From the sequence record PQ863253.1: a stretch of 64,000 nucleotides of DNA; one strand, given 5' to 3'. The position numbers and the translations under genes were made by a program. Every line of letters starts with the position of its first letter. The stretch's first letter is position 1. Origin of the DNA: Escherichia phage Ptacy1496. Shown in pieces: positions 1,519-25,464 of the stretch. The notes under the pieces are model-generated. The model made no database searches. It was given only the letters and a program-made list of their open reading frames with translations, and was not told the DNA's origin.

Positions 1519-1519
1519 T

Positions 1520-7030: not shown

Positions 7031-7085
7031 ATTAAAAAAGGCCCAACCAAAAAGGAAGGGCCAAAACTATAGACTAAAGGTCACA

Positions 7086-7253: not shown

Positions 7254-7281
7254 GATTGTCTCCTCTGAATTATATATCTAT

Positions 7282-7919: not shown

Positions 7920-7985
7920 ATTGTTCTCTATTCAATTGTTATTGGATGGACTTAGATTCATTATACCACGTTTATACGTGAAGCA

Positions 7986-8384: not shown

Positions 8385-9010
8385 TACAATAGCTCAAAGA
8401 ATTCTTTGAGTCCTCTTATTACATGAGCGTGAGTTTTTCCACACTCTGGACATTTAATTGGAACAGCCAAATAAACAGTAGGCTTTAAAAGCATATCTTT
8501 TATAGCTACAATATCTGACTCTGTGATGATAGAATATAAATCTTCTAGTTCCTTTTCATTTAAGTTTTCAACTGGAATGCTTTCCCCGTTAGCATGAATC
8601 GTTTCTATACATGATACTATCATGTGGGCTATATTTTTATCATCAAAAATTTTAGGGTATCGGAATTTAATTTTAATGTCACCCAGTGTATACCAAAGGT
8701 CTTCTGGTGCATCTATTTGTGTATGTAATAGATTTATATGGGTTGGTATTTTAGTTCCGCAGGTGCACTTCCAGGAGTTTTCGTGATTAACTTCTCCAAG
8801 AGAATGCGCCCATAAATGAATCAACAATAGTTCTGATTCTTGGCGATTTAAATCTTTTGCATTTGTGCAGTCTTTGATTAGCTTTTTAACAATTACTTCT
8901 ACAGAACCATTATTTTTGGCAGTAATAAGTTCTAGATATTCTTTAAGAGTAAATGCGCGACAGTTGATTATTTTAGAACCAACTCTCACATCAAATTTGT
9001 ATTCATACAT
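8384..9010 (-). CDS. 26: Baseplate hub protein gp26
   Basis: 208 aa; position between 25 and 51. Confidence 0.85.
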
Positions 9011-9031
9011 ATTTAGCTCCTTTATTTATCA

Positions 9032-9043
9032 TATTTATAAATA
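9032..9043. promoter_or_regulatory. Divergent overlapping late promoters (TATAAATA on both strands) between genes 26 and 51
   Basis: tatttataaata contains TATAAATA on plus (9036-9043) and minus (9032-9039) strands. Confidence 0.65.
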
Positions 9044-9060
9044 GAATAAAAGGAGCATCT

Positions 9061-9810
9061 ATGGCAAACATTATTCGTTGTAAATTACCAGATGGTGTTC
9101 ATCGTTTTAAACCATTTACGGTAGAAGATTATCGAGATTTTTTGTTAGTTCGAAACGATATAGAGCATCGGTCACCACAAGAACAAAAAGAAATAATTAC
9201 TGATTTAATTGATGATTATTTTGGAGACTATCCGAAGACTTGGCAACCATTTATATTTTTGCAGGTATTTGTAGGTTCAATAGGTAAAACTAAAGTACCA
9301 GTCACATTTGTATGTCCAAAATGTAAAAAAGAAAAGACAGTTCCATTTGAAATATATCAAAAAGAATTAAAGGAACCTATTTTTGATGTAGCTAATGTTA
9401 AAATTAAATTAAATTTTCCTTCTGAGTTTTATGAAAATAAAGCAAAGATGATTACTGAAAATATTCATTCTGTTCAAGTAGATGAAATGTGGTATGATTG
9501 GAAGGAAATTAGTGAATCGAGTCAAATAGAACTTGTTGACGCCATCGAGATAGAAACATTAGAAAAAATTCTCGATGCAATGAATCCTATTAATTTAACA
9601 TTGCACATGTCGTGTTGTGATAAGTACATTAAAAAATACACTGATATAGTAGATGTGTTTAAGCTATTAGTTAATCCAGATGAGATATTTACTTTTTATC
9701 AAATTAATCACACGCTTGTAAAAAGTAATTATAGCTTAAATTCAATAATGAAAATGATTCCTGCCGAGCGCGGATTCGTATTAAAACTGATTGAGAAGGA
9801 TAAACAATAA
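9061..9810 (+). CDS. 51: Baseplate hub assembly protein gp51
   Basis: 249 aa; position and size as T4 gp51. Confidence 0.85.
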
Positions 9811-10982
9811 TGAGTATGTTGCAACGCCCCGGATATCCAAATCTCAGCGTTAAATTATTTGAGAGTTATGACGCTTGGAGTAATAATAGATTTGTTGAAT
9901 TAGCTGCTACTATTACCACATTAACTATGCGGGATTCTCTTTATGGTCGAAATGAAGGAATGCTACAATTTTATGATTCTAAAAATATCCATACAAAAAT
10001 GGATGGAAATGAAATAATTCAGATTTCTGTAGCTAATGCAAACGATATTAATAATGTTAAAACAAGAATTTATGGATGTAAGCATTTTTCTGTATCTGTA
10101 GATTCAAAAGGTGATAACATCATTGCTATTGAATTGGGAACTATTCATTCTATAGAAAATCTTAAATTTGGTAGACCATTTTTCCCTGATGCAGGTGAAT
10201 CTATAAAAGAAATGCTTGGTGTCATTTATCAAGACCGCACATTATTAACTCCAGCAATAAATGCTATAAATGCTTATGTTCCTGATATTCCATGGACTAG
10301 CACATTTGAAAACTATTTGTCATATGTAAGAGAAGTTGCTCTAGCGGTAGGAAGCGATAAGTTCGTATTTGTATGGCAAGACATCATGGGAGTTAACATG
10401 ATGGACTATGATATGATGATAAATCAAGAACCATATCCAATGATTGTAGGTGAGCCAACTTTAATAGGTCAATTCGTCCAAGAATTGAAATATCCATTAG
10501 CATATGATTTTGTTTGGTTGACTAAATCAAACCCGCATAAACGTGATCCAATGAAAAATGCTACTATCTATGCTCATTCGTTTTTAGATTCTTCACTGCC
10601 AATGATTACTACAGGAAAGGGTGAAAACTCTATTGTAGTGTCAAGGTCAGGTGCTTATTCTGAAATGACTTATAGAAATGGATATGAAGAAGCTATTCGT
10701 CTTCAGACTATGGCGCAATATGATGGCTATGCTAAATGTTCTACTGTCGGTAATTTTAACTTGACTCCTGGTGTTAAAATTATTTTTAATGATAGTAAAA
10801 ACCAATTTAAAACAGAATTTTACGTTGATGAAGTTATTCACGAATTATCAAATAATAATTCCGTAACTCATCTTTACATGTTCACTAATGCAACGAAACT
10901 GGAAACAATCGACCCAGTTAAGGTTAAAAATGAATTTAAAACTGATACTACCACTGAAGAAAGTAGTTCTTCCGATAAGTAA
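9810..10982 (+). CDS. 27: Baseplate hub protein gp27
   Basis: 390 aa; position and size as T4 gp27. Confidence 0.9.
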
Positions 10983-11463
10983 TAAAGAAGTTTCTATTCC
11001 TAAGATGGGTCTTAAACATTATAACATTTTAAAAGATGTTAAAGGTCCTGATGAAAATTTAAAGCTTCTTATTGATTCTATTTGTCCAAATTTATCACCG
11101 GCAGAAGTTGATTTCGTTTCTATTCATTTGCTAGAATTTAATGGAAAGATTAAATCTCGTAAAGAAATAGATGGTTATACTTATGATATTAATGACGTTT
11201 ATGTATGCCAAAGATTGGAATTTCAATACCAAGGAAATACATTTTATTTTAGACCTCCTGGAAAATTTGAACAATTTTTAACTGTAAGCGATATGTTATC
11301 CAAATGCTTGCTTAAGATCAATGATGAAGTTAAAGAAATTAATTTTCTTGAGATGCCAGCATTTGTTTTAAAATGGGCAAATGATATTTCTACAACTTTA
11401 GCAATTCCTGGCCCTAATGGTCCAATAACCGGAATTGGCAATATTATTGGATTATTTGAATGA
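10930..11463 (+). CDS. 28: Baseplate hub distal protein gp28
   Basis: 177 aa from internal ATG at 10930 with AGG RBS; overlaps end of gene 27. Confidence 0.8.
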
Positions 11464-13232
11464 AAAAGCCACAAGAAATGCAAACGATGCGTAGAAAAGT
11501 TATTTCAGATAATAAACCAACACAGGAAGCGGCTAAATCCGCTTCTAATACTTTATCTGGTCTTAATAACATTTCTACAAAATTAGATGATGCTCAAGCT
11601 GCTTCTGAATTAATAGCTCAGACTGTTGAAGAAAAATCAAATGAAATAGTTGGAGCAATTGATAACGTTGAAAGCGCAGTAAGTGATACTACTGCCGGTT
11701 CTGAGTTAATTGCCGAGACTGTTGAAATTGGCAATAATATCAATAAAGAAATAGGCGAATCACTCGGAAGCAAATTAGATAAATTAACGAGTTTATTAGA
11801 ACAAAAAATTCAAACAGCTGGAATTCAACAGACTGGAACGAGTTTAGCAGTAGTCGAAAATGCTATTCCTGTTAAAGTTGTTGAGGACGATACAGCTGAA
11901 TCCGTGGGTCCTTTATTACCAGCTCCTGAAGCAGTTAATAATGATCCTGACGCTGATTTTTTCCCTGCCCCTCAACCAGTTGAACCTAAGCGAGAGTCAC
12001 CGGAAGAAAAACAGAAAAAAGAAGCATTTAATTTAAAATTATCTCAAGCTTTAGATAAATTAACAAAGACTGTTGATTTTGGATTTAAAAAATCCATTTC
12101 AATTACTGATAAAATATCAAGCATGCTATTTAAGTATACTGTCAGTGCTGCTATTGAAGCTGCTAAAATGGTTGCATTAATAATGGCTGTTGTTATTGGA
12201 ATAGACCTACTGATGGTTCATTTTAAATATTGGTCAGATAAATTTTCAAAAGCCTGGGATTTGTTTAGCACTGATTTTAAAACTTTTTCAAGCGAAACCG
12301 GAACTTGGGGTCCTTTATTACAGAGCATCTTTGAATCTATTGATGAAATTAAAAAGTTCTGGGAAGCGGGAGATTGGGGCGGTTTGACGGTAGCTATTGT
12401 AGAAGGGCTTGGAAAGGTTCTTTATAATTTAGGAGAACTTATTCAGCTTGGAATGGCTAAATTATCAGCAGCAATTCTTCGAGTTATTCCTGGTATGAAA
12501 GATACTGCTGACGAAGTAGAAGGAAGAGCACTGGAAAATTTCCAAAATTCTACTGGAGCATCTCTCAATAAAGAAGACCAGGAAAAAGTTGCGAATTATC
12601 AAGATAAACGAATGAATGGAGACCTTGGTCCGATAGCAGAAGGACTAGACAAAATTGCGAACTGGAAAACTCGTGCATCTAACTGGATTCGTGGTGTTGA
12701 TAATAAAGAAGCATTGACAACTGATGAAGAACGCGCAGCAGAAGAAGAAAAATTAAAGCAGCTTTCACCAGAAGAAAGAAAAAATGCTTTAATGAAGGCT
12801 AATGAAGCCCGTGCCGCGATGATTCGTTTTGAAAAATATGCTGATTCAGCTGATATGAGTAAAGACTCAACGGTTAAATCAGTTGAAGCTGCCTATGAAG
12901 ACCTTAAAAAACGAATGGATGACCCGGATTTAAATAATTCACCGGCAGTTAAAAAAGAACTTGCTGCTAGATTTTCTAAAATTGATGCTACTTATCAAGA
13001 GCTCAAGAAAAATCAGCCTAATGCCAAACCTCAAACTTCTGCTAAATCGCCAGAAGCAAAACAAGTCCAGGTAATAGAAAAGAACAAAGCACAGCAAGCT
13101 CCTATTCAACAAGCATCTCCTTCAATCAATAATACTAATAATGTTATTAAGAAAAATACTGTCGTTCATAATATGACACCCGTAACGAGCACGACTGCTC
13201 CTGGTGTATTTGATGCGACTGGAGTTAATTAA
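11460..13232 (+). CDS. 29: Baseplate hub / tail length determinator gp29
   Basis: 590 aa; size and position as T4 gp29. Confidence 0.9.
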   Translation: MKKPQEMQTMRRKVISDNKPTQEAAKSASNTLSGLNNISTKLDDAQAASELIAQTVEEKSNEIVGAIDNVESAVSDTTAGSELIAETVEIGNNINKEIGESLGSKLDKLTSLLEQKIQTAGIQQTGTSLAVVENAIPVKVVEDDTAESVGPLLPAPEAVNNDPDADFFPAPQPVEPKRESPEEKQKKEAFNLKLSQALDKLTKTVDFGFKKSISITDKISSMLFKYTVSAAIEAAKMVALIMAVVIGIDLLMVHFKYWSDKFSKAWDLFSTDFKTFSSETGTWGPLLQSIFESIDEIKKFWEAGDWGGLTVAIVEGLGKVLYNLGELIQLGMAKLSAAILRVIPGMKDTADEVEGRALENFQNSTGASLNKEDQEKVANYQDKRMNGDLGPIAEGLDKIANWKTRASNWIRGVDNKEALTTDEERAAEEEKLKQLSPEERKNALMKANEARAAMIRFEKYADSADMSKDSTVKSVEAAYEDLKKRMDDPDLNNSPAVKKELAARFSKIDATYQELKKNQPNAKPQTSAKSPEAKQVQVIEKNKAQQAPIQQASPSINNTNNVIKKNTVVHNMTPVTSTTAPGVFDATGVN

Positions 13233-13240
13233 GGAATAAT

Positions 13241-14335
13241 ATGGCAATTGTTAAAGAAATAACTGCTGATTTAATTAAAAAGTCCGGTGAGAAAATTTCA
13301 GCCGGACAGAGTACTAAATCAGAAGTAGCAACTAAAACATACACTGCCCAGTTTCCAACTGGGCGTGCTAGTGGTAATGACACTACAGGGGACTTCCAGG
13401 TAACAGATCTATATAAGAATGGATTATTATTTACTGCATACAATATGTCATCTAGGGATTCTGGAAGTCTTAGAACGATGAGATCTAACTACTCTTCTTC
13501 ATCTTCGAGTATTTTACGTACAGCCAGAAACACTATCAGTAATACAGTATCAAAACTATCAAATGGACTAATATCAGATAATAATTCAGGAACAATAAGT
13601 AAAGTTCCTGTTGCAAATATTCTTTTACCTAGATCTAAATCTGACGTCGATACGTCATCACATAGATTTAATGATGTTCAAGATAGTCTTATTACAAAAG
13701 GTGGAGGTACTGCTACTGGTGTGCTAAGCAATATGGCTTCAACCGCAGTATTTGGAGCGCTGGAAAGTATAACACAAGGTATAATGGCTGATAATAATGA
13801 ACAGATTTATACGACAGCCAGAAGCATGTACGGCGGTGCTGAAAATAGAACTAAAGTGTTCACTTGGGATTTGACTCCGCGCTCAACAGAAGATTTAATG
13901 GCTATTATTAATATCTATCAGTATTTTAACTATTTTTCTTACGGTGAAACTGGTAAATCTCAATATGCTGCTGAAATAAAAGGATATCTAGATGAGTGGT
14001 ACCGTTCTACTTTTATTGAGCCGTTAACTCCAGAAGATGCAGTTAAAAATAAGACGTTATTTGAGAAAATGACATCGAGTTTAACTAACGTTCTTGTAGT
14101 TTCAAACCCGACAATTTGGATGGTGAAAAACTTTGGTGCAACATCTAAGTTTGATGGAAAAACGGAAATATTCGGTCCATGTCAAATCCAGAGTATCAGA
14201 TTTGATAAAACACCTAATGGTAACTTTAACGGATTAGCTATTGCTCCAAATCTCCCTAGTACATTTACTCTCGAGATTACTATGAGAGAAATTATCACGT
14301 TAAACCGTGCTTCTTTATATGCGGGGACTTTTTAA
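13241..14335 (+). CDS. 48: Baseplate tail-tube junction protein gp48
   Basis: 364 aa; size and position as T4 gp48. Confidence 0.9.
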   Translation: MAIVKEITADLIKKSGEKISAGQSTKSEVATKTYTAQFPTGRASGNDTTGDFQVTDLYKNGLLFTAYNMSSRDSGSLRTMRSNYSSSSSSILRTARNTISNTVSKLSNGLISDNNSGTISKVPVANILLPRSKSDVDTSSHRFNDVQDSLITKGGGTATGVLSNMASTAVFGALESITQGIMADNNEQIYTTARSMYGGAENRTKVFTWDLTPRSTEDLMAIINIYQYFNYFSYGETGKSQYAAEIKGYLDEWYRSTFIEPLTPEDAVKNKTLFEKMTSSLTNVLVVSNPTIWMVKNFGATSKFDGKTEIFGPCQIQSIRFDKTPNGNFNGLAIAPNLPSTFTLEITMREIITLNRASLYAGTF

Positions 14336-15300
14336 TGTATTCTTTAGAGGAATTTAATAATCAAGCAATAAACGCAGATTTCCAACGTAATAATATGTTC
14401 AGCTGTGTTTTTGCTACAACTCCATCAACTAAAAGCTCTTCGTTGATAAGTTCAATTAGCAACTTTTCTTATAATAACTTGGGCCTAAATTCAGATTGGT
14501 TAGGATTAACTCAAGGCGATATTAATCAGGGAATTACTACGCTAATTACAGCTGGCACACAAAAACTGATAAGAAAATCAGGGGTTAGTAAATATCTTAT
14601 TGGTGCCATGAGTCAACGTACAGTTCAAAGTTTATTAGGCTCATTTACAGTTGGTACATATTTAATTGACTTCTTTAACATGGCATATAACTCATCTGGA
14701 TTGATGATATACTCTGTAAAAATGCCAGAGAATAGATTATCCTATGAAACTGACTGGAACTATAATTCTCCTAATATTCGTATAACTGGGAGAGAATTAG
14801 ACCCTTTGGTTATTTCATTCAGAATGGATTCAGAAGCTTGTAACTATCGTGCAATGCAAGACTGGGTTAACGCTGTTCAAGACCCAGTAACTGGATTGCG
14901 TGCTTTGCCGCAAGATGTCGAGGCTGATATTCAGGTTAATCTTCATTCTCGCAATGGATTACCACATACTGCGGTGATGTTCACTGGATGCATTCCAGTG
15001 TCCGTAAGCGCTCCTGAGTTATCATATGATGGAGATAACCAAATAACTACATTTGATGTTACTTTTGCGTATAGAGTCATGCAGGCTGGAGCAGTTGATA
15101 GACAAGCTGCGCTTGAATGGCTTGAATCTGCTGCTATAAATGGTATTCAAAGCGTTCTCGGAAATAGTGGAGGTGTCACTGGACTATCTAATTCGCTTTC
15201 ACGACTTAGTAGATTAGGGGGAACTGCAGGAAGCATTTCAAATATTAACACTATGACAGGAATTGTCAATTCGCAAAGTAAAATATTAGGAGCAATATAA
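14335..15300 (+). CDS. 54: Baseplate tail-tube initiator gp54
   Basis: 321 aa; size and position as T4 gp54. Confidence 0.9.
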   Translation: MYSLEEFNNQAINADFQRNNMFSCVFATTPSTKSSSLISSISNFSYNNLGLNSDWLGLTQGDINQGITTLITAGTQKLIRKSGVSKYLIGAMSQRTVQSLLGSFTVGTYLIDFFNMAYNSSGLMIYSVKMPENRLSYETDWNYNSPNIRITGRELDPLVISFRMDSEACNYRAMQDWVNAVQDPVTGLRALPQDVEADIQVNLHSRNGLPHTAVMFTGCIPVSVSAPELSYDGDNQITTFDVTFAYRVMQAGAVDRQAALEWLESAAINGIQSVLGNSGGVTGLSNSLSRLSRLGGTAGSISNINTMTGIVNSQSKILGAI

Positions 15301-15304
15301 CAAT

Positions 15305-15333
15305 GGGGACCTTTCGGTCCCCATATTTTTATT
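15305..15333 (+). terminator. Rho-independent terminator GGGGACC-TTTC-GGTCCCC plus T-run after gene 54
   Basis: 7 bp GC stem followed by ATATTTTTATTT. Confidence 0.7.
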
Positions 15334-15619
15334 TACGGAATGAAATGAAAGCAGCAACTGAAGCAACTAAACTGTCTTCAATATAAACTTCAATTTTTAC
15401 CGGAGCTTCTGACTCAAATTTACCTGTTACTACACCCTGAAAAATACTTTCAGTCTGTTCTGGCTTTGAAAAATTTTCAGAAGGAAAAATTCCGAACTTT
15501 TTATCTGTTCCAAAAATTTTGATAAATTCATCGTAAACTGCTTCATTAAAAGCATTATCAGCAGGAATAACGCCTTCAACTACAAGTTCTTGACCTAAAA
15601 AGCGCAAAGAAGATTTCAT
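15329..15619 (-). CDS. Hypothetical protein, 96 aa (alt.-3 position)
   Basis: ORF with GAGG RBS; driven by early promoter copy at 15628-15680. Confidence 0.65.
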   Translation of the reverse strand: MKSSLRFLGQELVVEGVIPADNAFNEAVYDEFIKIFGTDKKFGIFPSENFSKPEQTESIFQGVVTGKFESEAPVKIEVYIEDSLVASVAAFISFRK

Positions 15620-15627
15620 TTTGTGTT

Positions 15628-15680
15628 CCTCATGTTATGTCAGTAAGACTACTATAACACAACACGAGGGACTTGTAAAC
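15628..15680 (-). promoter_or_regulatory. Early promoter cassette (-35 GTTTACA, 17 nt spacer, -10 TATAGT); 53 bp, 52 of 53 identical to the alc promoter region at 30886-30938
   Basis: Direct comparison of the two segments in the sequence. Confidence 0.65.
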
Positions 15681-17737
15681 TACATCTTGAACTTTTTAGA
15701 CATTCCGTTGATGTTAACCAAAGAAGCTAAGATTTGAGAAACTTCGTTTTCCTCTTCTTTTGATTCTTCTACAAGGAATTGATTAAATCCAGCCATTGGA
15801 CGAACTTCACCAGTTTCCATTAGATGGTCGCCATCATATACTGATTCTTCTAATTGTTCAGAAGGAGGAACGATTGTACCTTCGATTAGATACTTGTTAT
15901 AAGCAGTTTCTTTCATAAAGTAAGTACTTACTTTATTAATCTTCAGTAAAATTCCACGTGGTAGAATAACTTCAGCTTCTGACGGAAATCCTGATAAATG
16001 ACCCGGAACGATAACTTTGATTCGCTCAGCTCCTTTAATTACCATACCCACGCTAGTTTCAGCATCTTCATTAGCATATGTAGAATGACTACCCATATGC
16101 ATCAAATCTTCTGCATCAACGGAACCTTCTCCTTCACCAGAAAATACTGCGCCGGAATCATCTAGAGCCATATAGTTTTTACCATGCTCACCGAAGATAT
16201 TTGGTTTAAGCGATGTGGATACGAAGTTCTTGAAATAGAACATTTTATTTTCAATGTTATGACGCAAAGTTTTAAAGGTAACTTCTTGTCCACGGTAAAG
16301 TGTAGTTCCTGGAGGAAGAACTGAACCTTTAGCGAATGCAGAATCAAGCGTCTCAATATGTTTAATAGCTCGTTCCATATATTCTTCACGGGTAGAATCT
16401 GGTTTACCCAAAAGGAACGAGTTCATTTCAACATATGAATCTGCACAATAATCTTCAATTACATCAGATTCAGCTTGAGTTAATCCTTTTGGAGTTACTT
16501 CAGTGCTTGCGTATTCATATGCCTGAGCAGCAGATTCATTAATCAATTTATAAATGCCATTCATGACAAATTGAATAATAGCTGTCTTTTCATCTGGCGT
16601 AGCTTTAGAACCTTTAACCAAATCATTGATAATTTTCTTAATAACATCAAAGCTATTAGAAATATTAATATCAGCAAGATCGCTTAAAATTTTATCAGTC
16701 TTATAATCAAAGAATTCTTTATTCTTTAAATATTCTTGAGAACCTTGATATGTTATATCGCTCTGTAACTTGATAAATGGATCACGTAAACGTGCATGGG
16801 CTAATGCAATATGATTTCGGAAGCTTTCGAGTTCATAATCACTAGATTTAAAACGAGAAGCGCTTCTCATACCGCCTATAGCTCCTTTGCTGAAGTTTGA
16901 ACCAATTTGAATAACGCCAGAGTTCATTGGTCCTTCTGCTTTATACACCGGAACTTTAGATTCAAACTCTTGATATTTCTTAGCAGCGAAGCTATCACCC
17001 TGAAGTGAAGCATCAACAGTAGAATATTGAGCTTGTGCTGCTAATCGACGACTAATTTTAGTTTTCTGAATAACAGCTTGGTCCGTGCGCTTATCATTTT
17101 CTAAAGCAATAGAAGCAGCAACAGCGACAGCTTTAGGAACAGCATTTCCTGTTTTAACGTCTACATAAACATCACCGACCTTTGATTCAACTTTTGTGAA
17201 TAACTCAGTTGAAATAGGAGGTACACCTGGAATGTCTTCTAAATTGGCATTTTTACGATAAACCATAATATATGCGTACTTTTTATCATAATCCCAGATT
17301 TCCTTTAAAAGAACATATCGACCTGCTCCTTTAGTACGTACTAAACGGTCAGCAATAACTTGCATTTGACGAGCAGCGCCATTTGTTTTACTCTTTAGTA
17401 CGCGGAATAAGCATGCATCAATTTTATACTGTTTCATTGTTTGAAGAGCAGTATCAAAAACAGCGTTAATGACGCCAATTGGATTTCCACCCAAGTTTCT
17501 AAGTTTAACCAGTGATAATTTCTCGTTGACACCTATCATTACGATATGCATCATTTTATCGCCCGGCTTAACGTTTTTATTTGTATCACCTCCAGAGGTG
17601 TATGTACAAAATCTAAATCCAGGAAGCACGCTTTCTTCGCCGGCTTGAATAGCAAAAATTTGAGGTATTTTATGCTTAGGATTTAAGTTAACAACCGGCG
17701 CCGAAGCGCCGTCAAATAATTCTGTAATAAGTTCCAT
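15680..17737 (-). CDS. Alt-like ADP-ribosyltransferase paralog (685 aa), tandem to alt
   Basis: N-terminal 230 aa and C-terminal tail closely similar to Alt; ART motifs retained (TLYRGQ, FYFKNFVSTSL, EAEVILPRG); central region divergent. Confidence 0.85.
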   Translation of the reverse strand: MELITELFDGASAPVVNLNPKHKIPQIFAIQAGEESVLPGFRFCTYTSGGDTNKNVKPGDKMMHIVMIGVNEKLSLVKLRNLGGNPIGVINAVFDTALQTMKQYKIDACLFRVLKSKTNGAARQMQVIADRLVRTKGAGRYVLLKEIWDYDKKYAYIMVYRKNANLEDIPGVPPISTELFTKVESKVGDVYVDVKTGNAVPKAVAVAASIALENDKRTDQAVIQKTKISRRLAAQAQYSTVDASLQGDSFAAKKYQEFESKVPVYKAEGPMNSGVIQIGSNFSKGAIGGMRSASRFKSSDYELESFRNHIALAHARLRDPFIKLQSDITYQGSQEYLKNKEFFDYKTDKILSDLADINISNSFDVIKKIINDLVKGSKATPDEKTAIIQFVMNGIYKLINESAAQAYEYASTEVTPKGLTQAESDVIEDYCADSYVEMNSFLLGKPDSTREEYMERAIKHIETLDSAFAKGSVLPPGTTLYRGQEVTFKTLRHNIENKMFYFKNFVSTSLKPNIFGEHGKNYMALDDSGAVFSGEGEGSVDAEDLMHMGSHSTYANEDAETSVGMVIKGAERIKVIVPGHLSGFPSEAEVILPRGILLKINKVSTYFMKETAYNKYLIEGTIVPPSEQLEESVYDGDHLMETGEVRPMAGFNQFLVEESKEEENEVSQILASLVNINGMSKKFKM

Positions 17738-17740
17738 GAT

Positions 17741-19789
17741 TTATCCTTGAACGAACTTGTAAGGCATGTTTGTAATATCTATGCAAGACGCAATAATTCC
17801 AAGAGATGATTCTACTTTCTGTTTAACATTTGATGAAACAAATGATGCAAAGTCAACTCTATCTTCTATATCACCTGTCATTGTAACTACTTCGCCGGTT
17901 TCCATTAAACGGTCACCGTCATAAATTACTGATTCGGTGAGTTCTTCGGTGGTCATAACTTCAGCTTGAATAAGCTTGTTGTTAGTTTTGACTGTTCCAT
18001 CATTGTAAGATGCATCAGTTATTTTATTAACTTTGACCATTAATCCACGTGGCAAAATGACTTCCATTTCATTTGAAGGCGCTAAACTTCCACCGGGTAA
18101 AACAACATTGACTTTATCAGCCCCAGTAATAACCCATCCAATTCCGACTAAATTATCGCTAGAATTAACAAGCCCTTCATCATTTTTATCGATAGAAATG
18201 TTTAGACGCTTTTCATCTGGTAAAACACCAACAGCTGAATCAGTCATCCAAGTACCAAAAATGTTTGGATATAATGATGTTGATACAAAATTTCTAAAAT
18301 AAAAAACTCGATTTTTTACCATTGCTTCGTATATTGAAGGTAACATTCGTTGTGAACGATACAAAGTAATACCTTTTGGTAATCGTTCACCATTTTTAAA
18401 GGCTGAATCTAAATTATCAATAGCTTTTTCTATGTCAGATGCTGTCAAAATACTTGTACGCTCATCTGGATTATATAATCCCAAAAGAGCATTATTTATG
18501 TCTACATATCCTGAACCTACGTATTCACGAATTCCGCGTTTTTGTGCTGGTGTGTATTTAGATGAATCTTTATTTTCGACTATAGGATGTAATGACCATC
18601 CAGCTGTAAGAGCATATCCACGTAATTCTCTTCGAATAATCTTTGTTTTTATTGCATTCCAAGAATTTTGTACTAACTCATTTGCAGCATCTTGGTTTAA
18701 ATGCGAATGTTTGTTAATATTTCTTTCAAACCAAGCACCTTTATATTTTTCTAAAGTATCATCGACGATAGAAGCAATAGTTTCTAAAGTTTTTATTGAA
18801 GTAATAGATTCTTTTCGTAATTTTTCTAAAGCTTTATTTTTTATTTCTGCATTAATAATGGATTCTTTATCTTCAGGAATTATAGAAGCTTCTCTGAATG
18901 CCATCCCAGCTGTAACATTGCTAAGAGCATTCTCTAGTGCAAATCCTGAAGTAGAAATTACCGTTAATTCATTAGAATCAGAAATTAAAGGCGCATCAGC
19001 GGGTTTATTTAATTCTGCTGCTGAAGCCTCAAATTTTTGAAACATCGGTGTTTCAAATCTAGAAGATTCCAATGACTGACTTTGTGCAATTGCTCTACGG
19101 GAAATTTTAACTTTAACGATTACAGCTTGGTCAGAACGTTTATCATTTTCTTGTGCAATAGATGCTGCAATTGCCTCATTTTTGGTTACTTGAGCTCCGG
19201 TATCTTTATTGATATAAACATCACCGACCTTCGATTCAACTTTAGTAAAGAGCTCGGTACTAATTTCCGGAACTCCTGGAATGTCTTCTAGTGATACATT
19301 TTTGCGATGTATAAGAATATATGCATACTTTTTATCATAATCCCAGAGTTCCTTAAGAAGGACGTATCTGCCACCTGAACGACTACGGATAAGTCTATCA
19401 GCAATAACTTGAATTTGTCGAGCTTGACCAGCGGTTTTAGACTTAAGAATACGAAGCATACAAGCATCAATTTTATACTGACGCATTGTTTGCATTGCAA
19501 CAGTAAAAACTGAATTGATATAATTAATTGGGCTTGGACCAAGACCTTTTAATTTAGCAATTGAACCTTTAGCGGTTAATGTAAAAGGAACAATATGCAT
19601 CATTTTATCGCCCATTTTTAAATCGCGATTAGTATCACCTCCAGATGTATAGGTACATAAACGAAAGCCTGGTTGTTCAATTGCATCATCAACATGAACT
19701 GAAAAAATTTGCGGTATTTTCTTCTTTGGATTTAAGTTTGTAATCGGAAGAGTAGTATCTTCGTCAAATAATTCTGTAATAAGTTCCAT
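17741..19789 (-). CDS. alt: Alt, head-packaged ADP-ribosyltransferase
   Basis: 682 aa from second ATG (better RBS spacing); recognised as T4 Alt; R-S-E type motifs (LYRSQ, FVSTSL, EMEVILPRG). Confidence 0.92.
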   Translation of the reverse strand: MELITELFDEDTTLPITNLNPKKKIPQIFSVHVDDAIEQPGFRLCTYTSGGDTNRDLKMGDKMMHIVPFTLTAKGSIAKLKGLGPSPINYINSVFTVAMQTMRQYKIDACMLRILKSKTAGQARQIQVIADRLIRSRSGGRYVLLKELWDYDKKYAYILIHRKNVSLEDIPGVPEISTELFTKVESKVGDVYINKDTGAQVTKNEAIAASIAQENDKRSDQAVIVKVKISRRAIAQSQSLESSRFETPMFQKFEASAAELNKPADAPLISDSNELTVISTSGFALENALSNVTAGMAFREASIIPEDKESIINAEIKNKALEKLRKESITSIKTLETIASIVDDTLEKYKGAWFERNINKHSHLNQDAANELVQNSWNAIKTKIIRRELRGYALTAGWSLHPIVENKDSSKYTPAQKRGIREYVGSGYVDINNALLGLYNPDERTSILTASDIEKAIDNLDSAFKNGERLPKGITLYRSQRMLPSIYEAMVKNRVFYFRNFVSTSLYPNIFGTWMTDSAVGVLPDEKRLNISIDKNDEGLVNSSDNLVGIGWVITGADKVNVVLPGGSLAPSNEMEVILPRGLMVKVNKITDASYNDGTVKTNNKLIQAEVMTTEELTESVIYDGDRLMETGEVVTMTGDIEDRVDFASFVSSNVKQKVESSLGIIASCIDITNMPYKFVQG

Positions 19790-19812
19790 CATAGCCTCTC
19801 TAGTGTTTATTC

Positions 19813-19820
19813 TATTTATA
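19813..19820 (-). promoter_or_regulatory. Late promoter TATAAATA upstream of alt
   Basis: tatttata on plus strand 24 nt upstream of alt start; Alt is a late, head-packaged protein. Confidence 0.6.
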
Positions 19821-19841
19821 AAATTAAAGGCCCGAAGGCCT

Positions 19842-20030
19842 TTAGTAATCTAGTGGTAAGAGAGTACGATATATTTCAAACTTTGGTCCTTTTTCATAGG
19901 CATCAAATGTTTCTGTAAATTTATTATAAGCGTATGCATCTACAAATTCGAGAATGACTTGTGATACAGAAGTAGAAACATCTCCACCTTCTTTTTGAGC
20001 AATGACAATTGTTTCTAAGTAAGCTTTCAT
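19842..20030 (-). CDS. Hypothetical protein, 62 aa
   Basis: ORF overlapping ligase stop by 4 nt. Confidence 0.5.
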   Translation of the reverse strand: MKAYLETIVIAQKEGGDVSTSVSQVILEFVDAYAYNKFTETFDAYEKGPKFEIYRTLLPLDY

Positions 20031-21490
20031 AAACCAGTTACCTCATGAAAATCACCAAATACATCCTCGAATGTATTAGCTTTAGTTTTATCTTCACGTA
20101 AACGAATCGCAATCGGAAGAAATAATTTAACGTAATCAGTGCGGCCGTCAGATTTTAACCAACCGTTGCATTCGCACTCTAGAATTTTTCCAATATAATA
20201 ATTTTGGTTTTCCATAATGCGAGTACGGTCAAGTTCATGCGATTTTACACCGGCTTTATCTTTTAAGCCTGAACCAGCATTTACCTTAATTTTTCCACAC
20301 TCTGATTCAAGAATAAATCCACCCGCTTTAGTAGGGTCTTTACGGTGAGGATAAATTCCTACAATTTTTAAATCAACATCAATTACTTCTTTAAATTTAT
20401 AGAGATTTTTTGAACGAGCATTTTCCCACAATCCATCGGTATTTTTGAGAATAATACCTTCAAGACCTTGGTCAATATACTTTTTATAAATTACCTTAGC
20501 TTCATCTAGGTTATTTACTACCTGGTTTTCAATTAAAATTACTTTATCATAACCTGATGTCATTTGTTCTAGTTTAGAAAAACGTACATCATATTTCAAA
20601 CGAAATGCAGGAAGACCGTATATTTCTACCAACGGGACATAATCCCAGACCTGAAACTTCATGCATTGAGCTTCTTTTTCAGAAATGGTTCCCTTTAAAG
20701 ATTTATTGGCGATGCCATTAGATGCAGTACGTGATTCAGCTACTTCGGCGAATTCTTTAGCTTTACTAATTTCAGGATAAGCATCAAAAAGAAAATCTAG
20801 GCCTTCTGGCTCCTTTTCAACTTGCTCATGGTATACCAATTCGCCATCAATTAACACACCTTCTGGATGAATCTGGCGAGCTTCTGCAGTCATTTTGATT
20901 AACTCTTCCTTAAGAAGATCTAATCCTAGATATTCATTACCAGCTCGTGATAAAAGACGAACATCATCTAATTCATCACCTCTGACTTCAGCAAAACACC
21001 GAGCTCCATCAGCTTTTAACTGGGCAAAGGCTGGAAATTTGATATTCTTATTAATGCCTTTTTCATCATAAGAACTTGCAAGCATTTGAGGTTGTTCAGG
21101 AATTAAACCTGGCCAAACTTTGTTTGCAATAGATACTGAAGCACCGCATTCAAGGTCTCGCATCATCACCCGACGCAAAACTTCAACATCATCTTTTTTA
21201 CCGTCAGTAATATATCCAGTTAATTCCTCAATTGCCGCATTTCCAGTCAATTTCCGAGTAGCTAACGTGAATTCAATGAAGTCAAGCATATCGGTAAGAG
21301 TCAACATTCCAAAACTCTGGGTAGCAATACCCGGTTTAGGCCATTTCTTGATATAATACTGTAACCCACGAGAATAAGTCAGACGATATACTCGTTTAAG
21401 CAATTCATTATCTTTATTCTTTTCAAGAATTGCTTGCTTCTGCTTAGTTGAACCAATAGATGCTATTTCGTTCAGAATTTTAAGAATCAT
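20027..21490 (-). CDS. 30: ATP-dependent DNA ligase
   Basis: 487 aa; recognised as T4 DNA ligase. Confidence 0.95.
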   Translation of the reverse strand: MILKILNEIASIGSTKQKQAILEKNKDNELLKRVYRLTYSRGLQYYIKKWPKPGIATQSFGMLTLTDMLDFIEFTLATRKLTGNAAIEELTGYITDGKKDDVEVLRRVMMRDLECGASVSIANKVWPGLIPEQPQMLASSYDEKGINKNIKFPAFAQLKADGARCFAEVRGDELDDVRLLSRAGNEYLGLDLLKEELIKMTAEARQIHPEGVLIDGELVYHEQVEKEPEGLDFLFDAYPEISKAKEFAEVAESRTASNGIANKSLKGTISEKEAQCMKFQVWDYVPLVEIYGLPAFRLKYDVRFSKLEQMTSGYDKVILIENQVVNNLDEAKVIYKKYIDQGLEGIILKNTDGLWENARSKNLYKFKEVIDVDLKIVGIYPHRKDPTKAGGFILESECGKIKVNAGSGLKDKAGVKSHELDRTRIMENQNYYIGKILECECNGWLKSDGRTDYVKLFLPIAIRLREDKTKANTFEDVFGDFHEVTGL

Positions 21491-21756
21491 TGTTCATCCT
21501 TTAGAGTTTGGTTTACAGCTCTATTATAAATCAATTCATCATTAAGCTCAGTCAAAGACCTGTGGTACGTGGTTCTAACTTTATTTCCTTGCATCCAGTG
21601 CTTGACATAAATGAAACCTTGCTCTACACATTTTTTAAAAATTCGTTCGTCTTTTTGAGCTCGGAATTCTGGATTGCATCTAAAAAATTGATTTACGTGA
21701 CCGTAATCACGTGTAGTATTACCTTCATTTTCATAAATAGTATGAACAACAAACAT
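21487..21756 (-). CDS. Hypothetical protein (30.1 position)
   Basis: 89 aa ORF with 4 nt overlaps to neighbours. Confidence 0.6.
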   Translation of the reverse strand: MFVVHTIYENEGNTTRDYGHVNQFFRCNPEFRAQKDERIFKKCVEQGFIYVKHWMQGNKVRTTYHRSLTELNDELIYNRAVNQTLKDEQ

Positions 21757-22595
21757 TAGAATGCTCCTTGGAAAATATTATCACCACTAGTAGGTCTATT
21801 ATACAAATACTCTATGCCACCAGGTTTAATATAGTTCCATGTCTGAAACGGATGTGTCTGATATGGATGATATAGATGATTATAAGGATTAAATCCAGGA
21901 GTTCTCCAGGTAGTGTTCCAAGGAAAAGAATCGTTTTTGATCATCTTCTCAATTACATCTTTTATAGCTTTTTCACTATCAAAACTTTCTTTATTTTCCT
22001 TTGGTGAAAAAAGCTTATTTTCTACATCATTCCATGTATAAACTCGCTGTGCAGTTTTTGGAATATTGTCACGCTCTCCTCGAGCCATCCAATAAACAGG
22101 AACATTTAATATTTCACTCGCGTGATCGCAGTGGTGAGCGAGATCGTCAATATAACAAATTACGTTATATTTCTCTTTTGCCTTTTTGAACAACTCTTCT
22201 TTTGAAGAATCATGACCACACATCAATACTTCTGAGAAGGCACCAGGAAAAAGAGCATTCAAATTAAATTGACGATTCAGCAGAGCGTCAATAGAATCAC
22301 CCAATGCTGTAACAGCTACAAAATTATAATCTTCTTTTAATTTGTTAATTACACACAGGGCATCTTTATATGGAGACAAGTAACGAATAAAATCTGAACG
22401 ATTGTATTTTTCAATTAACTTGACGCCAAGTTCTTCATCACAATTAAAGAGTTTACCAGGAGAAATAAATTTCTCATCTTGGATCATTTTTAAAATATGT
22501 TCTAACGGAAGATTATATTTCTGAGCAAAATAAGGAAGGCCTGATTGCCAGCTTAAACATACTCCATCAATATCAGTTAAAATAGTAGGCTTCAT
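21756..22595 (-). CDS. HAD-superfamily hydrolase-like protein (30.2 position)
   Basis: 279 aa; N-terminal LTDIDGV motif typical of HAD phosphatases. Confidence 0.65.
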   Translation of the reverse strand: MKPTILTDIDGVCLSWQSGLPYFAQKYNLPLEHILKMIQDEKFISPGKLFNCDEELGVKLIEKYNRSDFIRYLSPYKDALCVINKLKEDYNFVAVTALGDSIDALLNRQFNLNALFPGAFSEVLMCGHDSSKEELFKKAKEKYNVICYIDDLAHHCDHASEILNVPVYWMARGERDNIPKTAQRVYTWNDVENKLFSPKENKESFDSEKAIKDVIEKMIKNDSFPWNTTWRTPGFNPYNHLYHPYQTHPFQTWNYIKPGGIEYLYNRPTSGDNIFQGAF

Positions 22596-23056
22596 AGAGA
22601 GTCTCTTAATAGGTTTAACACATCAATAAATTCAGCTTCGGTTAATATTGTATCATCTTTTGTTAGACCACTAGCCATGCTGTGCTTCAAAACTTTTCCT
22701 TTCGAGGCGTGTAATGCATCACGAAAGCCCTTGTTTTGGATCGCTGCTTCAAAATATGCATTTGTGTATAATTCTTTCCATGCTGGGGAGTATCTTGAAA
22801 ACGGAACTCCAAGCCAGAAGAGGGTCCCACGGTCCTGAGCTCTAGCATAAGACCTTCCAGCTTGTTGGGCGGCAAGCCCGGATAACCCAAATATACGACG
22901 TTGTTGTTCAGCATTTTTCACCTTGCATCCTTGGAGGAATCCTTCAAGACCTCCGAATTGAATACCATCCATGACGAAAGGCCATTGGGCGAAATTACTT
23001 AATGCACACGATGGCCATCTAAAATTGCTTCTAATCTCTAACTCAGACATTTTCAA
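22592..23056 (-). CDS. NADAR/YbiA-like protein (30.3 position), putative ADP-ribose processing
   Basis: 154 aa; family assignment from memory of T4 30.3, not from a search. Confidence 0.55.
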   Translation of the reverse strand: MKMSELEIRSNFRWPSCALSNFAQWPFVMDGIQFGGLEGFLQGCKVKNAEQQRRIFGLSGLAAQQAGRSYARAQDRGTLFWLGVPFSRYSPAWKELYTNAYFEAAIQNKGFRDALHASKGKVLKHSMASGLTKDDTILTEAEFIDVLNLLRDSL

Positions 23057-23249
23057 TACTTATAATTTCAACATCAGCCCAATGACCATAGCAAGGAAGA
23101 CGAAATTCAACTGGCCAGTTAGGGTCCTTTTCTAATATAATAGACTTAACTTGTGGTTCTTCATGTTCATCAGTATATGGATTTTTATCTGTTACTTTAT
23201 ATGTGACCTTAATGTACTGAATTCCAAAAATCTTATTAATTATATTCAT
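23043..23249 (-). CDS. Hypothetical protein, 68 aa
   Basis: ORF in tight operon packing. Confidence 0.5.
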   Translation of the reverse strand: MNIINKIFGIQYIKVTYKVTDKNPYTDEHEEPQVKSIILEKDPNWPVEFRLPCYGHWADVEIISIENV

Positions 23250-23443
23250 ACTAATTCCTTTAATCCGTAAATAGGAGATAATTCATCACCCATACGAAGG
23301 TCTTCATTTCCATCTACCCAGGAAACAATATAAGCCTCTTTTATTTGAACACCACTCCATTTAAATGGAGGTAGAACCTTAGAAATTAATCCAGGTATAC
23401 CAACTCCCTTTAATTCAACAGTTTGACCTAAAAAGAATTTCAT
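23246..23443 (-). CDS. Hypothetical protein, 65 aa
   Basis: ORF in tight operon packing. Confidence 0.5.
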   Translation of the reverse strand: MKFFLGQTVELKGVGIPGLISKVLPPFKWSGVQIKEAYIVSWVDGNEDLRMGDELSPIYGLKELV

Positions 23444-23730
23444 CAGAACCTCATCTGAAAGCCGTGTGATTTAACATTACCGCCGCCAATATCAGAAATA
23501 TTAATTTCACGCGCAATTGAAGGGTCAATGTCAATTTCACGATTAAGTTTAGCGATAGCTAAAGTATCACGCCCATTTACTGTACGGAATTCTAAAGGAC
23601 AAACCACATCAACATAATTTTTAATCGATTCACTGGTAGGTTGCAAATGAGCAGGAAGGTCTTTAGGCGCCTTAGAGAAAACAACTTCACAGAAATTTTT
23701 GCGGGTATCAAAATAAGTAGTCATAAACAT
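23443..23730 (-). CDS. Hypothetical protein, about 95 aa
   Basis: Start placed at ATG 23730 with GAGG RBS; ORF track extends upstream through a GGGGC-UUCG-GCCCC hairpin. Confidence 0.5.
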   Translation of the reverse strand: MFMTTYFDTRKNFCEVVFSKAPKDLPAHLQPTSESIKNYVDVVCPLEFRTVNGRDTLAIAKLNREIDIDPSIAREINISDIGGGNVKSHGFQMRF

Positions 23731-23770
23731 AGTATTTTCCTCAGTAAGGGGCCGAAGCCCCTGTTTTATT

Positions 23771-24136
23771 TTAAATATCAAATTCGTTAAGAACTACATC
23801 AAAGATTGCTTCAAGATGCTCAGGTTTAGCTCTGTTACTCAAAATATGACGAATCCAAGTTTTAACCAGAAGCTTACGATTAGCGCCATTCCAGCAAGGA
23901 TGGGTCCCTAAATCGCGTTGACGAAAATCATCATCCAGAGCGATTTTGAAGTTTGAACCTTCCATTGTGATTGAAACCGTGATGCCATTTTCAAATCGCA
24001 TATAAACGTAGTTAGGAGTCATATACTGTTCAATTTCGCATACTGATCCATTTTGATGTTTCCAAAGGCAAATAGTATCAATAGAACCTGCAATACCATT
24101 AGAAACATATTTACGTTCAAAGTTGATGTAGTTCAT
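23771..24136 (-). CDS. Hypothetical protein, 121 aa
   Basis: ORF. Confidence 0.55.
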   Translation of the reverse strand: MNYINFERKYVSNGIAGSIDTICLWKHQNGSVCEIEQYMTPNYVYMRFENGITVSITMEGSNFKIALDDDFRQRDLGTHPCWNGANRKLLVKTWIRHILSNRAKPEHLEAIFDVVLNEFDI

Positions 24137-24204
24137 TTTTATTCTCCAAGATGTTTAATTGCGGTACAGGTATATAATATCATATCCTGTACCAAAGTAA
24201 ACAA

Positions 24205-24537
24205 TTATTTTACTACTTTCCAATGCTGCATGTCAAGTTTACCAACTTTTTTCATCTTCTCAATTAAGCGTTCGGCACGTTGGCGAGCTGTAACATAATA
24301 CCATTCACCTAATTCATTTTGTTCAATTTTTCCAACGATTACTGTATTCAATTCATAAATCCAACCAGTAAAGAAATTATGAACTTGAATTGTAAAGGTG
24401 AAATCTGTTCCCATACCTTCTGTTGTTTCTACTTCAATAATATCACCTTCAACTGCCATTAAGAACCACATAGTTTCATCATATTTACCATTGAAGCATT
24501 TAGTTTTAACTGCAGCGTTCAGATTAATCGTTTTCAT
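24205..24537 (-). CDS. Hypothetical protein, 110 aa
   Basis: ORF with AAGGAG RBS, downstream of early promoter at 24565-24594. Confidence 0.6.
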   Translation of the reverse strand: MKTINLNAAVKTKCFNGKYDETMWFLMAVEGDIIEVETTEGMGTDFTFTIQVHNFFTGWIYELNTVIVGKIEQNELGEWYYVTARQRAERLIEKMKKVGKLDMQHWKVVK

Positions 24538-24564
24538 TTTATTCTCCTTTGTTTGTGTAAGATA

Positions 24565-24594
24565 ATACTATCACAAAGGAACCATACTGTAAAC
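24565..24594 (-). promoter_or_regulatory. Early promoter (-35 GTTTACA, -10 TAGTAT) directly downstream of terminator hairpin
   Basis: Motifs with 17 nt spacing on minus strand. Confidence 0.5.
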
Positions 24595-24614
24595 AACTTT
24601 ATGCAATCTTTGGA

Positions 24615-24642
24615 AAATAAAAAAGGACTCCCGAAGGAGTCC
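24615..24642 (-). terminator. Terminator GGACUCC-UUCG-GGAGUCC plus U-run
   Basis: 7 bp stem, UUCG loop, UUUUUUAUUUU on minus strand. Confidence 0.7.
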
Positions 24643-24647
24643 TCAAC

Positions 24648-24824
24648 TTATGCTTTCTGCTTACCAAAACGAGAAGCATCATCTCGAAGAACCGCACGTG
24701 CTCGGCGCATGATCTTCTCAACAGTTTGATTGATACGAGAGTTCGACCCACGCTTGTAGCCAGCGCGTTTAGAATCACCAACTTTCTTTTCAACTGCTTT
24801 CTTTGCTTTAGCTTGTTTTGCCAT
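24648..24824 (-). CDS. Small basic protein (30.9 position)
   Basis: Lys/Arg-rich ORF; start placed at MAKQAKAKK; an upstream in-frame ATG exists. Confidence 0.5.
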   Translation of the reverse strand: MAKQAKAKKAVEKKVGDSKRAGYKRGSNSRINQTVEKIMRRARAVLRDDASRFGKQKA

Positions 24825-25068
24825 TATAAATTCTCTTTTAAATGAAAATGCAGGACTTATTGGCATTGCCTGCGCAAGCCCTCAAGGGGAACATAGGTTT
24901 TTGGATATTTAACGACCAGGATAACCATAAACCCGTCATCATTCACATTCAAGAGGTACACCGTAAAACTGCCGGGGTCTTAAAACTATAATGATTCGCA
25001 AATCATTAATCAGACAGTTCGACGGCTCCTCGATTTAGCTCACACTAAGGCAGTGAATCTCCAATAAA

Positions 25069-25317
25069 TTACTTCAATGTTACCACAAAGTGACGAACTG
25101 CTTTTCGCGCAGCAGAAGCCAAAGGCTTAGCATATTTAAGTTCATCTTTTTCCTGAAGCTCAGCAGCTAATGCAGTTTGAGCAGGATTCAGATGTTTGAA
25201 ATAACGCAGGATTTCAAGAGCTTCGGCTTCAACATCAATAGATGCGCCATAGTTTTCGTGACCATTATTCCATGCGTTTCGTTGCAGTTCAAGAGCGTGT
25301 TGTAATTGTTTAATCAT
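25069..25317 (-). CDS. rIII: Lysis inhibition accessory protein RIII
   Basis: 82 aa; recognised as T4 rIII. Confidence 0.9.
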   Translation of the reverse strand: MIKQLQHALELQRNAWNNGHENYGASIDVEAEALEILRYFKHLNPAQTALAAELQEKDELKYAKPLASAARKAVRHFVVTLK

Positions 25318-25464
25318 TTAAAAATTCTCGTTAGAGATTAAAACTCGGTAGTCACGTTCTTCTGAATTTCATCTTCTTTCGACAGATCTCTCAGTTGTAG
25401 ACTACCACATAGAATTGTTCGGTTAACTTATTATTCCGACACCCAATTCATATTATTATTTATA

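Follow-up and report, generated by a model that had tools for sequence, protein, structure and literature searches.

What does a second, full-length alt-like gene do beside alt in a T-even phage? The question is raised by Escherichia phage Ptacy1496 (sequence record PQ863253.1), from which a stretch of 64,000 nucleotides (nt), referred to here as the window, was analysed. The source of the window is a Tequatrovirus (T4-like phage) with two paralogous genes at the alt locus. In T4, Alt is a head-packaged, injected enzyme that mono-ADP-ribosylates Arg265 of the RNA polymerase alpha subunit. Inactivation of MazF by Alt has also been reported (Alawneh 2016). The list of open reading frames (ORFs) of the window contains two long minus-strand frames between 15680 and 19792, ORF A and ORF B, of 682 and 685 amino acids (aa). 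ORF B (76.0 kDa) lies downstream of A, and exactly 3 nt separate the two frames, in agreement with a first-pass annotation of this DNA, made from the letters alone, which had described two adjacent ORFs of the 680-aa class.

ORF A is the already characterised Alt, as 671 of its 682 residues (98%) are identical to those of T4 Alt (NP_049811). This length is counted from the second ATG; an additional in-frame ATG at 19790–19792 adjoins the annotated alt start, and translation from 19792 gives 683 aa (MMELITE...). The T4 numbering and the published ITE-6 site both count from the downstream ATG. Mass spectrometry of T4 Alt has shown that six N-terminal residues are removed at the motif of the gp21 prohead protease, ITE-6, and 63 C-terminal residues at LTE-619 (PMC5694885). 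Mature T4 Alt has a mass of 68.2 kDa and is present at about 40 copies per head (PMC5694885; PMC9026906). The mass computed for residues 7–619 of A is 68.2 kDa, matching the published value.

ORF B is 41% identical to A over its full length (BLASTP, E = 5e-157), and PHROG 802 ('Alt-like RNA polymerase ADP-ribosyltransferase') matches both proteins end to end (B residues 1–685, E = 9e-256). The Pfam family ADPrib_exo_Tox is matched by A (3e-36) and by B (6e-20), and PF03496 and PF26846 are precomputed on the cluster to which B belongs; neither protein is covered by an NCBIfam model. The full Alt architecture is present in B: a 6-residue propeptide, an alpha/beta N-terminal domain (N-domain), a helical centre, an ADP-ribosyltransferase (ART) domain of the R-S-E type and a C-terminal tail (Table 1). 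Homologue statistics were taken from an alignment of 43 diverse family members, down to about 28% identity, in all of which R482, S507, E587 and E589 (B numbering) are invariant. Along this alignment residues 1–240 are conserved, 241–420 are hypervariable, the ART core is conserved except at 521–560, and a conserved island lies at 621–640. The pattern of conserved ends and a variable centre is family-wide. Only 112 relatives were found among 1.84 billion representative proteins searched, many of them matching in two stretches (N-domain and ART domain) with the centre unmatched, and a word-indexed protein search with the B centre alone (236–413) returned one 112-aa fragment only.

An AlphaFold2 model of B, built from the 43-sequence alignment, has a mean predicted local distance difference test score (pLDDT) of 78.6 and a predicted template modelling score of 0.69. 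It contains a short N-terminal helix, an alpha/beta domain at about 15–195, an all-helical region at 202–414, an ART domain at about 381–622 with a disordered loop at 518–556, a low-confidence stretch at 629–636 and a helical tail. The predicted ART fold is of the VIP2/C3 type, and the closest solved folds to B are protein-arginine ARTs. Arginine-specific R-S-E toxins (Vis, C3-like exoenzymes, the enzymatic components of VIP2, iota and CdtA, and SpvB) are among the systems closest to B. The layout of the binary toxins (VIP2, iota Ia, CdtA, C2-I), which have two tandem ART folds with an inactive N-terminal adaptor, was not found in B. The GNAT acyl-CoA N-acyltransferase fold was also rejected for the N-domain: the resemblance is weak and does not amount to a clear fold match together with the acetyl-CoA-binding Q/R-x-x-G-x-G/A loop. 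A sequence search of the PDB gave no match for B and only a weak match to CdtA for Alt, in which the R and ExE of Alt align with those of CdtA; no solved structure of an Alt-family protein was found by this search. The sequence, the profiles and the predicted fold together back the view that both genes encode Alt-type R-S-E transferases, and B is very probably an active ART of the Alt family.

The two proteins differ unevenly along their length. Both genes begin with the same 28 nt and both proteins with the same nine residues (MELITELFD). Identity is 68% over residues 1–236, drops to 22% between A 237–410 and B 236–412, and is 38–44% in the ART domain from about residue 411 (38% in the 411–600 core, and 38% in the tail). 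The loop between the STS and ExE motifs (A 521–555) is only 17% identical to B. The centres are still homologous by profile (PHROG 802 positions 239–410, E = 2.5e-21). The first-pass annotation had described a nearly identical N-terminal 230 aa followed by strong divergence from about 230 to 480. The alignment gives 68% over about 235 aa for the former; the strong central divergence stands, while its true span is about 237–410 plus the ART loop (B 518–556). The remainder of that description held. The start MELITELFD, taken to resemble a prohead-protease LxE site, includes the ITE-6 site published for Alt, and the Arg, STS and ExE motifs are kept in A (R478, S503–S505, E574 and E576) and in B (R482, S507–S509, E587 and E589). 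The upstream copy, in which loss of the catalytic Glu or Arg would have told against the proposal, thus retains R478, E574 and E576. B therefore shares with T4 Alt its length class, first nine residues, N-domain, catalytic motifs, both gp21-site motifs and the tail motif YDGDxLMETGEV, and differs from it in the centre, the STS–ExE loop and the C-terminus (KFKM in B, KFVQG in Alt).

Whether the second copy corresponds to an ORF already annotated between gene 54 and alt of the T-even phages had been left open, and it does. The corresponding place in T4, 3 nt beyond the end of alt, is taken by alt.-1 (61 aa, NP_049810) and alt.-2 (67 aa, NP_049809), which the T4 record explains as an old copy of the beginning of alt that has a stop and a new start. 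Alignment of the T4 interval with the window shows that the first ~340 nt of B are present in T4 at about 93–95% DNA identity. T4 is without one A of the A-run at B nt ~160–164 (about 17574–17578 of the window), and this 1-nt frameshift accounts for the split into alt.-1 and alt.-2. PHROGs 23015 (alt.-1) and 15247 (alt.-2) match B residues 1–56 and 62–117. A 1,699-nt deletion, from codon ~116 up to the last six codons of B, lies between the 9-bp near-repeats CTAAAGAGT (B nt 340–348) and CTAAAAAGT (B nt 2039–2047), after which T4 resumes with the last 20 nt of B and the stop codon. The T4 genes are thus in the same slot as B but are a remnant, whereas B is intact.

T2 and T6 encode intact versions of the second protein. 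These are AYD82791 of T2 (MH751506), labelled hypothetical protein 'alt.-1', and AXN58232 of T6 (MH550421), labelled hypothetical protein 'alt.-2'; each is 685 aa long, 99% identical to B and in the same position. They represent the same gene as B, although the adjoining alt is a different allele. The T6 annotation of AXN58232 reads 'apparent insertion in alt.-2; also similar to alt'. Because B is a complete Alt-like protein, and its T4 counterpart carries a frameshift and ends early at a microhomology, the alignments identify T4 as the derived, deleted state, and the insertion annotated in T6 as having the direction backwards. By tblastn, about 396 phage records carry B at ≥95% amino-acid identity, while a junction-spanning probe found 91 records that match across the T4-type deletion junction, so intact pairs outnumber deleted ones by about four to one and are the norm in the genus. 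The single junction common to the 91 records suggests that the T4-type deletion arose once.

Selection on B was estimated by pairwise Nei–Gojobori comparison of the alleles of the window, T2, T6 and WL-3. The ratio of non-synonymous to synonymous substitution (dN/dS) was 0.025–0.067, with 61–98 synonymous versus 6–24 non-synonymous differences; the corresponding range for Alt alleles was 0.047–0.066. B is under strong purifying selection. Between A and B, synonymous sites are near saturation even in the N-domain (proportion of synonymous differences, pS, 0.60; synonymous divergence, dS, ~1.2), and dS for A versus B is ~1.2–1.5. The duplication is therefore old, and recent gene conversion is ruled out as the source of the N-domain similarity.

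Tandem Alt genes occupy this locus in other phages. In Dhakavirus QL01 there are three Alt paralogues in tandem, of 694, 681 and 707 aa, separated by 3-nt spacers; phage 04086 also has three, and other genera gave one Alt copy in the tblastn search with B. Nolan et al. (2006) listed T4 alt.-1/alt.-2, RB49 ORF183c and 44RR ORF187c/188c as alt duplications (PMC1524935). The tandem genes of QL01, 44RR, RB49 and 6phi13/SHFML-11 share with the pair in the window the locus (from ligase and alt.1 to alt.-3 and gene 54), the 3-nt spacers and the architecture, but copy number differs (1–3) and the N-domains track the genome rather than the orthologue. B and the QL01 paralogue QL01_3 are 47% identical in the centre, 59% in the ART domain and 63% in the tail, and both end in KFKM; by these values QL01_3 is the orthologue of B in centre, ART domain and tail. 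Their N-domains are only 45% identical, and N-domains are more alike within a genome (A and B, 68%; QL01_2 and QL01_3, 89%). The simplest reading is that the N-domain is bound to the head-assembly machinery of its own phage and that centre and ART modules are swapped by recombination. Compared in this way across the subfamily, the locus is a mosaic, tandem array of one to three paralogues.

The alt gene itself also varies. It occurs as at least two alleles, the T4 type of 682 aa found in the window, and a 697-aa type found in T2, T6 and WL-3. The T2/T6 protein is 72% identical to T4 Alt overall; domain by domain, the N-domain is identical and the C-tail 95% identical, with 32% in the centre and 65% in the ART domain. 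The ART domain of the T2/T6 type is 95% identical to that of QL01_1, which suggests module exchange between genera.

The signals around the pair fit late co-transcription of alt and B at the time of prohead building. The putative late promoter TATAAATA has no second occurrence on the minus strand from 9040 to 25456, and a motif and hairpin scan found no late promoter and no terminator between alt and B, the next terminator being located after alt.-3 (15324–15303). The predicted AAGGA ribosome-binding site of B sits inside the end of alt. These promoter, terminator and ribosome-binding calls are consensus matches, not mapped transcripts. Processing motifs are likewise shared: with a slash marking the gp21 site, QLEE/SVYDGD of B aligns with LTE/SVIYDGD of Alt, and the start MELITE/L is identical in the two. 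Among the 43 homologues E631 is invariant (43/43), L or I is found at −2 in 40, and E6 is present in 42. The C-terminal motif of B falls in the disordered 629–636 stretch of the model. With cleavage at both predicted sites the mature protein (residues 7–631) would have a computed mass of 69.2 kDa. The first-pass annotation had proposed two head-packaged, injected enzymes. For B the support is indirect, coming from the MELITE propeptide, the aligned (L/I)-x-E site, the late promoter upstream of alt and the lack of an intergenic terminator; on this basis packaging and injection of B are likely. The original observation is thus confirmed in part, and its interpretation partly supported.

The account we favour, which as a whole seems somewhat more likely than not, is that B is a late-made, core-incorporated, gp21-trimmed and co-injected arginine ADP-ribosyltransferase with a target range of its own. 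B would be transcribed late with alt from the promoter at 19813–19820 and translated from its own Shine–Dalgarno sequence, starting 3 nt after the alt stop. It would enter the prohead core via the same N-terminal propeptide and N-domain as Alt, and be trimmed by gp21 after E6 and E631 to an enzyme of about 69 kDa. This enzyme would stay in the head, enter the cell with the DNA, and move ADP-ribose from NAD+ onto arginine residues in the newly infected cell; arginine is the predicted acceptor because of the E-x-E motif. Its host-protein targets would be at least partly different from those of Alt, with the range set by the helical centre and ART loop of B, since these are the diverged parts. 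The chances for and against such a difference in targets appear evenly balanced.

Several points weigh against this account. The divergence of targets is drawn purely from sequence divergence, and overlapping or even identical targets of A and B are possible because the catalytic core and the E-x-E signature are shared. Any phenotype of B may be conditional, since T4 thrives without it and Alt itself is non-essential (PMC9026906). The late promoter of the pair is a consensus match rather than a mapped start. No proteomic record of B in virions was found in the literature searched, and the one virion proteome that could be linked to a phage with two copies, that of SH7 (2 peptides, 3% coverage), reported the upstream copy only. 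The SH7 mass spectrometry was accordingly set aside as evidence for packaging of B: the ORF detected (119150–121210) is the upstream copy.

The alternative that survives best, though we consider it unlikely, is that B is packaged and injected but redundant with Alt. It would then act on the targets of Alt itself, above all Arg265 of the RNA polymerase alpha subunit, and its retention would serve dosage or insure the phage against variation in the host or between alleles. Such redundancy would suit the common architecture, catalytic motifs, E-x-E arginine signature and processing motifs of the two proteins, the loss of B from T4 without obvious cost, and the promiscuity in vitro reported for Alt (Depping 2005, as cited in PMC5512222). 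The duplication is old, yet the centre and ART domain of B have each been conserved across genera as a lineage of their own (47–63% identity between B and QL01_3, against 10–39% between paralogues), and dN/dS for B is 0.03–0.07. Maintenance of the centre and ART domain as a separate orthologous lineage across genera is expected of distinct, individually selected functions rather than of redundant ones.

A second possibility, with a low probability, is an active ART that does not travel with the DNA: B would act late in the producing cell or fail to be retained in the mature head. Its absence from the proteomic records found in the literature would be explained, and packaging is read from motifs only. 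However, the propeptide of B is identical to that of Alt, conservation is highest in the N-domain (68%, against 22–38% elsewhere), and the C-terminal (L/I)-x-E site is aligned, with an invariant Glu. In Alt such features are tied to core incorporation and gp21 processing (PMC5694885, PMC9026906), and their constraint would be unexpected in a protein that is not packaged.

It is less probable again that B uses a different class of substrate from Alt, for example by attaching NAD-capped RNA (RNAylation, as for ModB) or modifying nucleic acid rather than protein arginine. T4 ModB is described as attaching RNA chains to host proteins (Wolfram-Schauerte 2023, as cited in PMC13600099 and PMC9503650), and the loop 518–556 and the centre of B are unlike those of Alt; nothing specific in the sequence of B points to such a substrate, however, and both the closest solved folds and the E-x-E motif are those of protein-arginine ARTs. 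B carries all of the Alt-specific parts, in which it differs from T4 ModA and ModB. The Mod proteins are small, expressed after infection and not packaged, and lack the Alt N-domain and propeptides. ModA and ModB are phage ARTs of the R-S-E clade that act on host proteins (PMC9503650, PMC5512222). Finally, that B is a decaying duplicate, a pseudogene in the making, has next to no credibility: the frameshifted, truncated stub held by T4 and 90 other records is contradicted as a guide to B by about 400 records at ≥95% identity in which its 685 aa are intact and free of stops, by the low dN/dS, by the retention of all catalytic and processing residues and by the orthologue in another genus.

The gene pair as such is already known: RefSeq and many GenBank records label both genes as Alt-like ADP-ribosyltransferases, and the T4 annotation as well as Nolan et al. 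(PMC1524935) had pointed out the duplication. For 6phi13, a genome paper of 2026 made the same observation, a pair of Alt-like paralogues with 43% identity, and read it in the same way, as 'functional divergence following gene duplication' (PMC13600099). The literature searched contained no functional, proteomic or structural study of the second Alt copy, and only remarks in genome descriptions (PMC1524935, PMC13600099); in a bNACHT preprint the text matches were to the word 'alter' only. What is added here is the deletion history of T4 alt.-1/alt.-2, the count of intact and deleted alleles, the estimate of selection, the conserved C-terminal protease site and the cross-genus mosaic.

Table 1. 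Features of the alt locus in the window, and related loci in compared phages (positions are those of the window unless an interval is named).
Feature	Position	Strand	Remarks
alt.1 homologue	19842–20030	−	62 aa
Terminator-like hairpin (AAAGGCCTTCGGGCCTTT plus T-run)	19825–19844	−	After alt.1 homologue, directly upstream of alt late promoter; scan and sequence reading
T4-type late promoter motif TATAAATA	19813–19820	−	24 nt upstream of alt start
alt (ORF A)	17741–19789	−	Alt ADP-ribosyltransferase, 682 aa, 98% identical to NP_049811
A gp21 sites	ITE-6, propeptide 19772–19789; LTE-619 17933–17941	−	PMC5694885
A catalytic residues	R478 18356–18358; STS S503–S505 18275–18283; EME E574/E576 18062–18070	−	
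Spacer, alt stop to B start	17738–17740	−	3 nt; AAGGA Shine–Dalgarno for B within alt end
ORF B	15680–17737	−	Full-length Alt paralogue; intact form of T4 alt.-1/alt.-2
B residues 1–6 (MELITE)	17720–17737	−	Predicted N-terminal propeptide ending in gp21 site I-T-E
B residues 7–200	17138–17719	−	Conserved alpha/beta N-terminal domain, Pfam PF26846 Tevenvirinae_ADPRT
B residues 236–412	16502–17032	−	All-helical hypervariable centre, 22% identical to Alt
B residues 381–622	15872–16597	−	R-S-E ADP-ribosyltransferase domain
B catalytic residues	R482 16292–16294; STS 507–509 16211–16219; EAE 587–589 15971–15979	−	
B loop 518–556	16070–16186	−	Disordered, hypervariable, inside ART domain
B L629-E630-E631	15845–15853	−	Predicted C-terminal gp21 motif aligned with Alt LTE-619; low pLDDT
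B residues 632–685	15683–15844	−	Predicted C-terminal propeptide (SVYDGDHLMETGEV...KFKM)
Segment absent from T4	15699–17398	−	1,699-nt deletion (DNA alignment)
Early-type promoter TTTACA-17-TATAGT, TG before −10	15651–15679	−	Directly after B stop, precedes alt.-3
alt.-3 homologue	15329–15619	−	96 aa, DUF5498; neighbour, outside pair
Bidirectional terminator hairpin	15303–15324	.	Gene 54/alt.-3 interval; end of leftward transcription unit
QL01 three-paralogue array	864–7124 of QL01 interval L005		
Phage 04086 three-paralogue array	2484–9035 of interval L007		
T2 alt	3805–5898 of T2 interval L002		
T6 alt	6363–8456 of T6 interval L003		

The genes flanking the pair are of the T4 type. Genes 29, 48 and 54 lie to the left on the plus strand, and after gene 54 the minus-strand order is the alt.-3 homologue, B, A, the alt.1 homologue and DNA ligase. 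Over a 4.6-kb segment, identity to Escherichia phages vB_EcoM_G4498 and ESCO58 is 99.9%, and the segment matches 530 phage records, nearly all of them Tequatrovirus. The alt.1 homologue matches Pfam Phage_blade (PF24647, E = 1.9e-29), and its T4 annotation goes no further than conserved hypothetical protein. The early-type promoter of alt.-3 (TAGTTTACA) overlaps in its −35 region with the TAG stop codon of B. The hairpin between gene 54 and alt.-3 has a perfect 9-bp stem and scores as a terminator on both strands; its loop is GAAA in the window and TTTC in T4, and appears to be inverted.

Foldseek comparison of the B N-domain (window 17018–17737) with predicted viral structures gave weak to moderate matches outside the Alt family (E 1e-7 to 1e-4, template modelling score ~0.4–0.5, 11–15% identity). 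They lie in N-terminal parts of large uncharacterised proteins, some of which carry annotations for zeta-toxin, deaminase or ParB/Srx domains; the phages concerned are unrelated big myoviruses (Erwinia phiEa2809, Dickeya RC-2014, Shigella MK-13, Vibrio VP-1 and Agrobacterium Atu_ph07). The fold of the Alt N-domain may represent a wider delivery module.

Three further proteins (P0202, P0218 and P0222) matched the N-domain only, with no Pfam or PHROG ART match. Fusion of an Alt N-domain to a cargo other than an ART was rejected for P0202 and P0222, as degenerate ART motifs were found on reading their sequences. P0202 has YK, TSCS and NxE in place of R, STS and ExE, and may be catalytically altered or dead. 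P0222 (1142 aa; motifs YRYQG...DAEV...EHVEVLLPG) appears to hold two degenerate ART-like segments, and its gene, on a metagenomic contig (L008, 552–3980), directly follows a DNA ligase gene, placing it at the same locus. Both proteins belong to the Alt locus and have diverged very far.

Nearly all work on phage ADP-ribosylation has been built on T4 and its three active enzymes, Alt, ModA and ModB. B is kept by T2, by T6 and by roughly four fifths of the sequenced records matching the locus, and T4 is the exception. Tentatively, the alt locus may be viewed as an array that can expand, made up of one to three effector cassettes delivered in the head. Each would have a genome-specific N-terminal packaging domain, two propeptides removed by the protease, and a helical-centre/ART cargo exchanged between genera. 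On this view B would bring the T-even ADP-ribosyltransferases to four, alongside Alt, ModA and ModB, and would have host or defence-system targets of its own. The mosaic, with N-domains tracking the genome and centre and ART domains tracking cross-genus orthologues, neatly illustrates how injected effectors evolve as modules. The second Alt copy is less a surprise than a clean gap in T-even biology that can be tested, and B is an easy, well-defined gene to test, being at a non-essential locus with natural null alleles in T4. If its targets differ from those of Alt, B could contribute to differences among T-even phages in host takeover or in sensitivity to defence systems. If the array view is true, the account of injected host-takeover enzymes built on T4 would be only a partial one for most of the genus, T2 and T6 among them.

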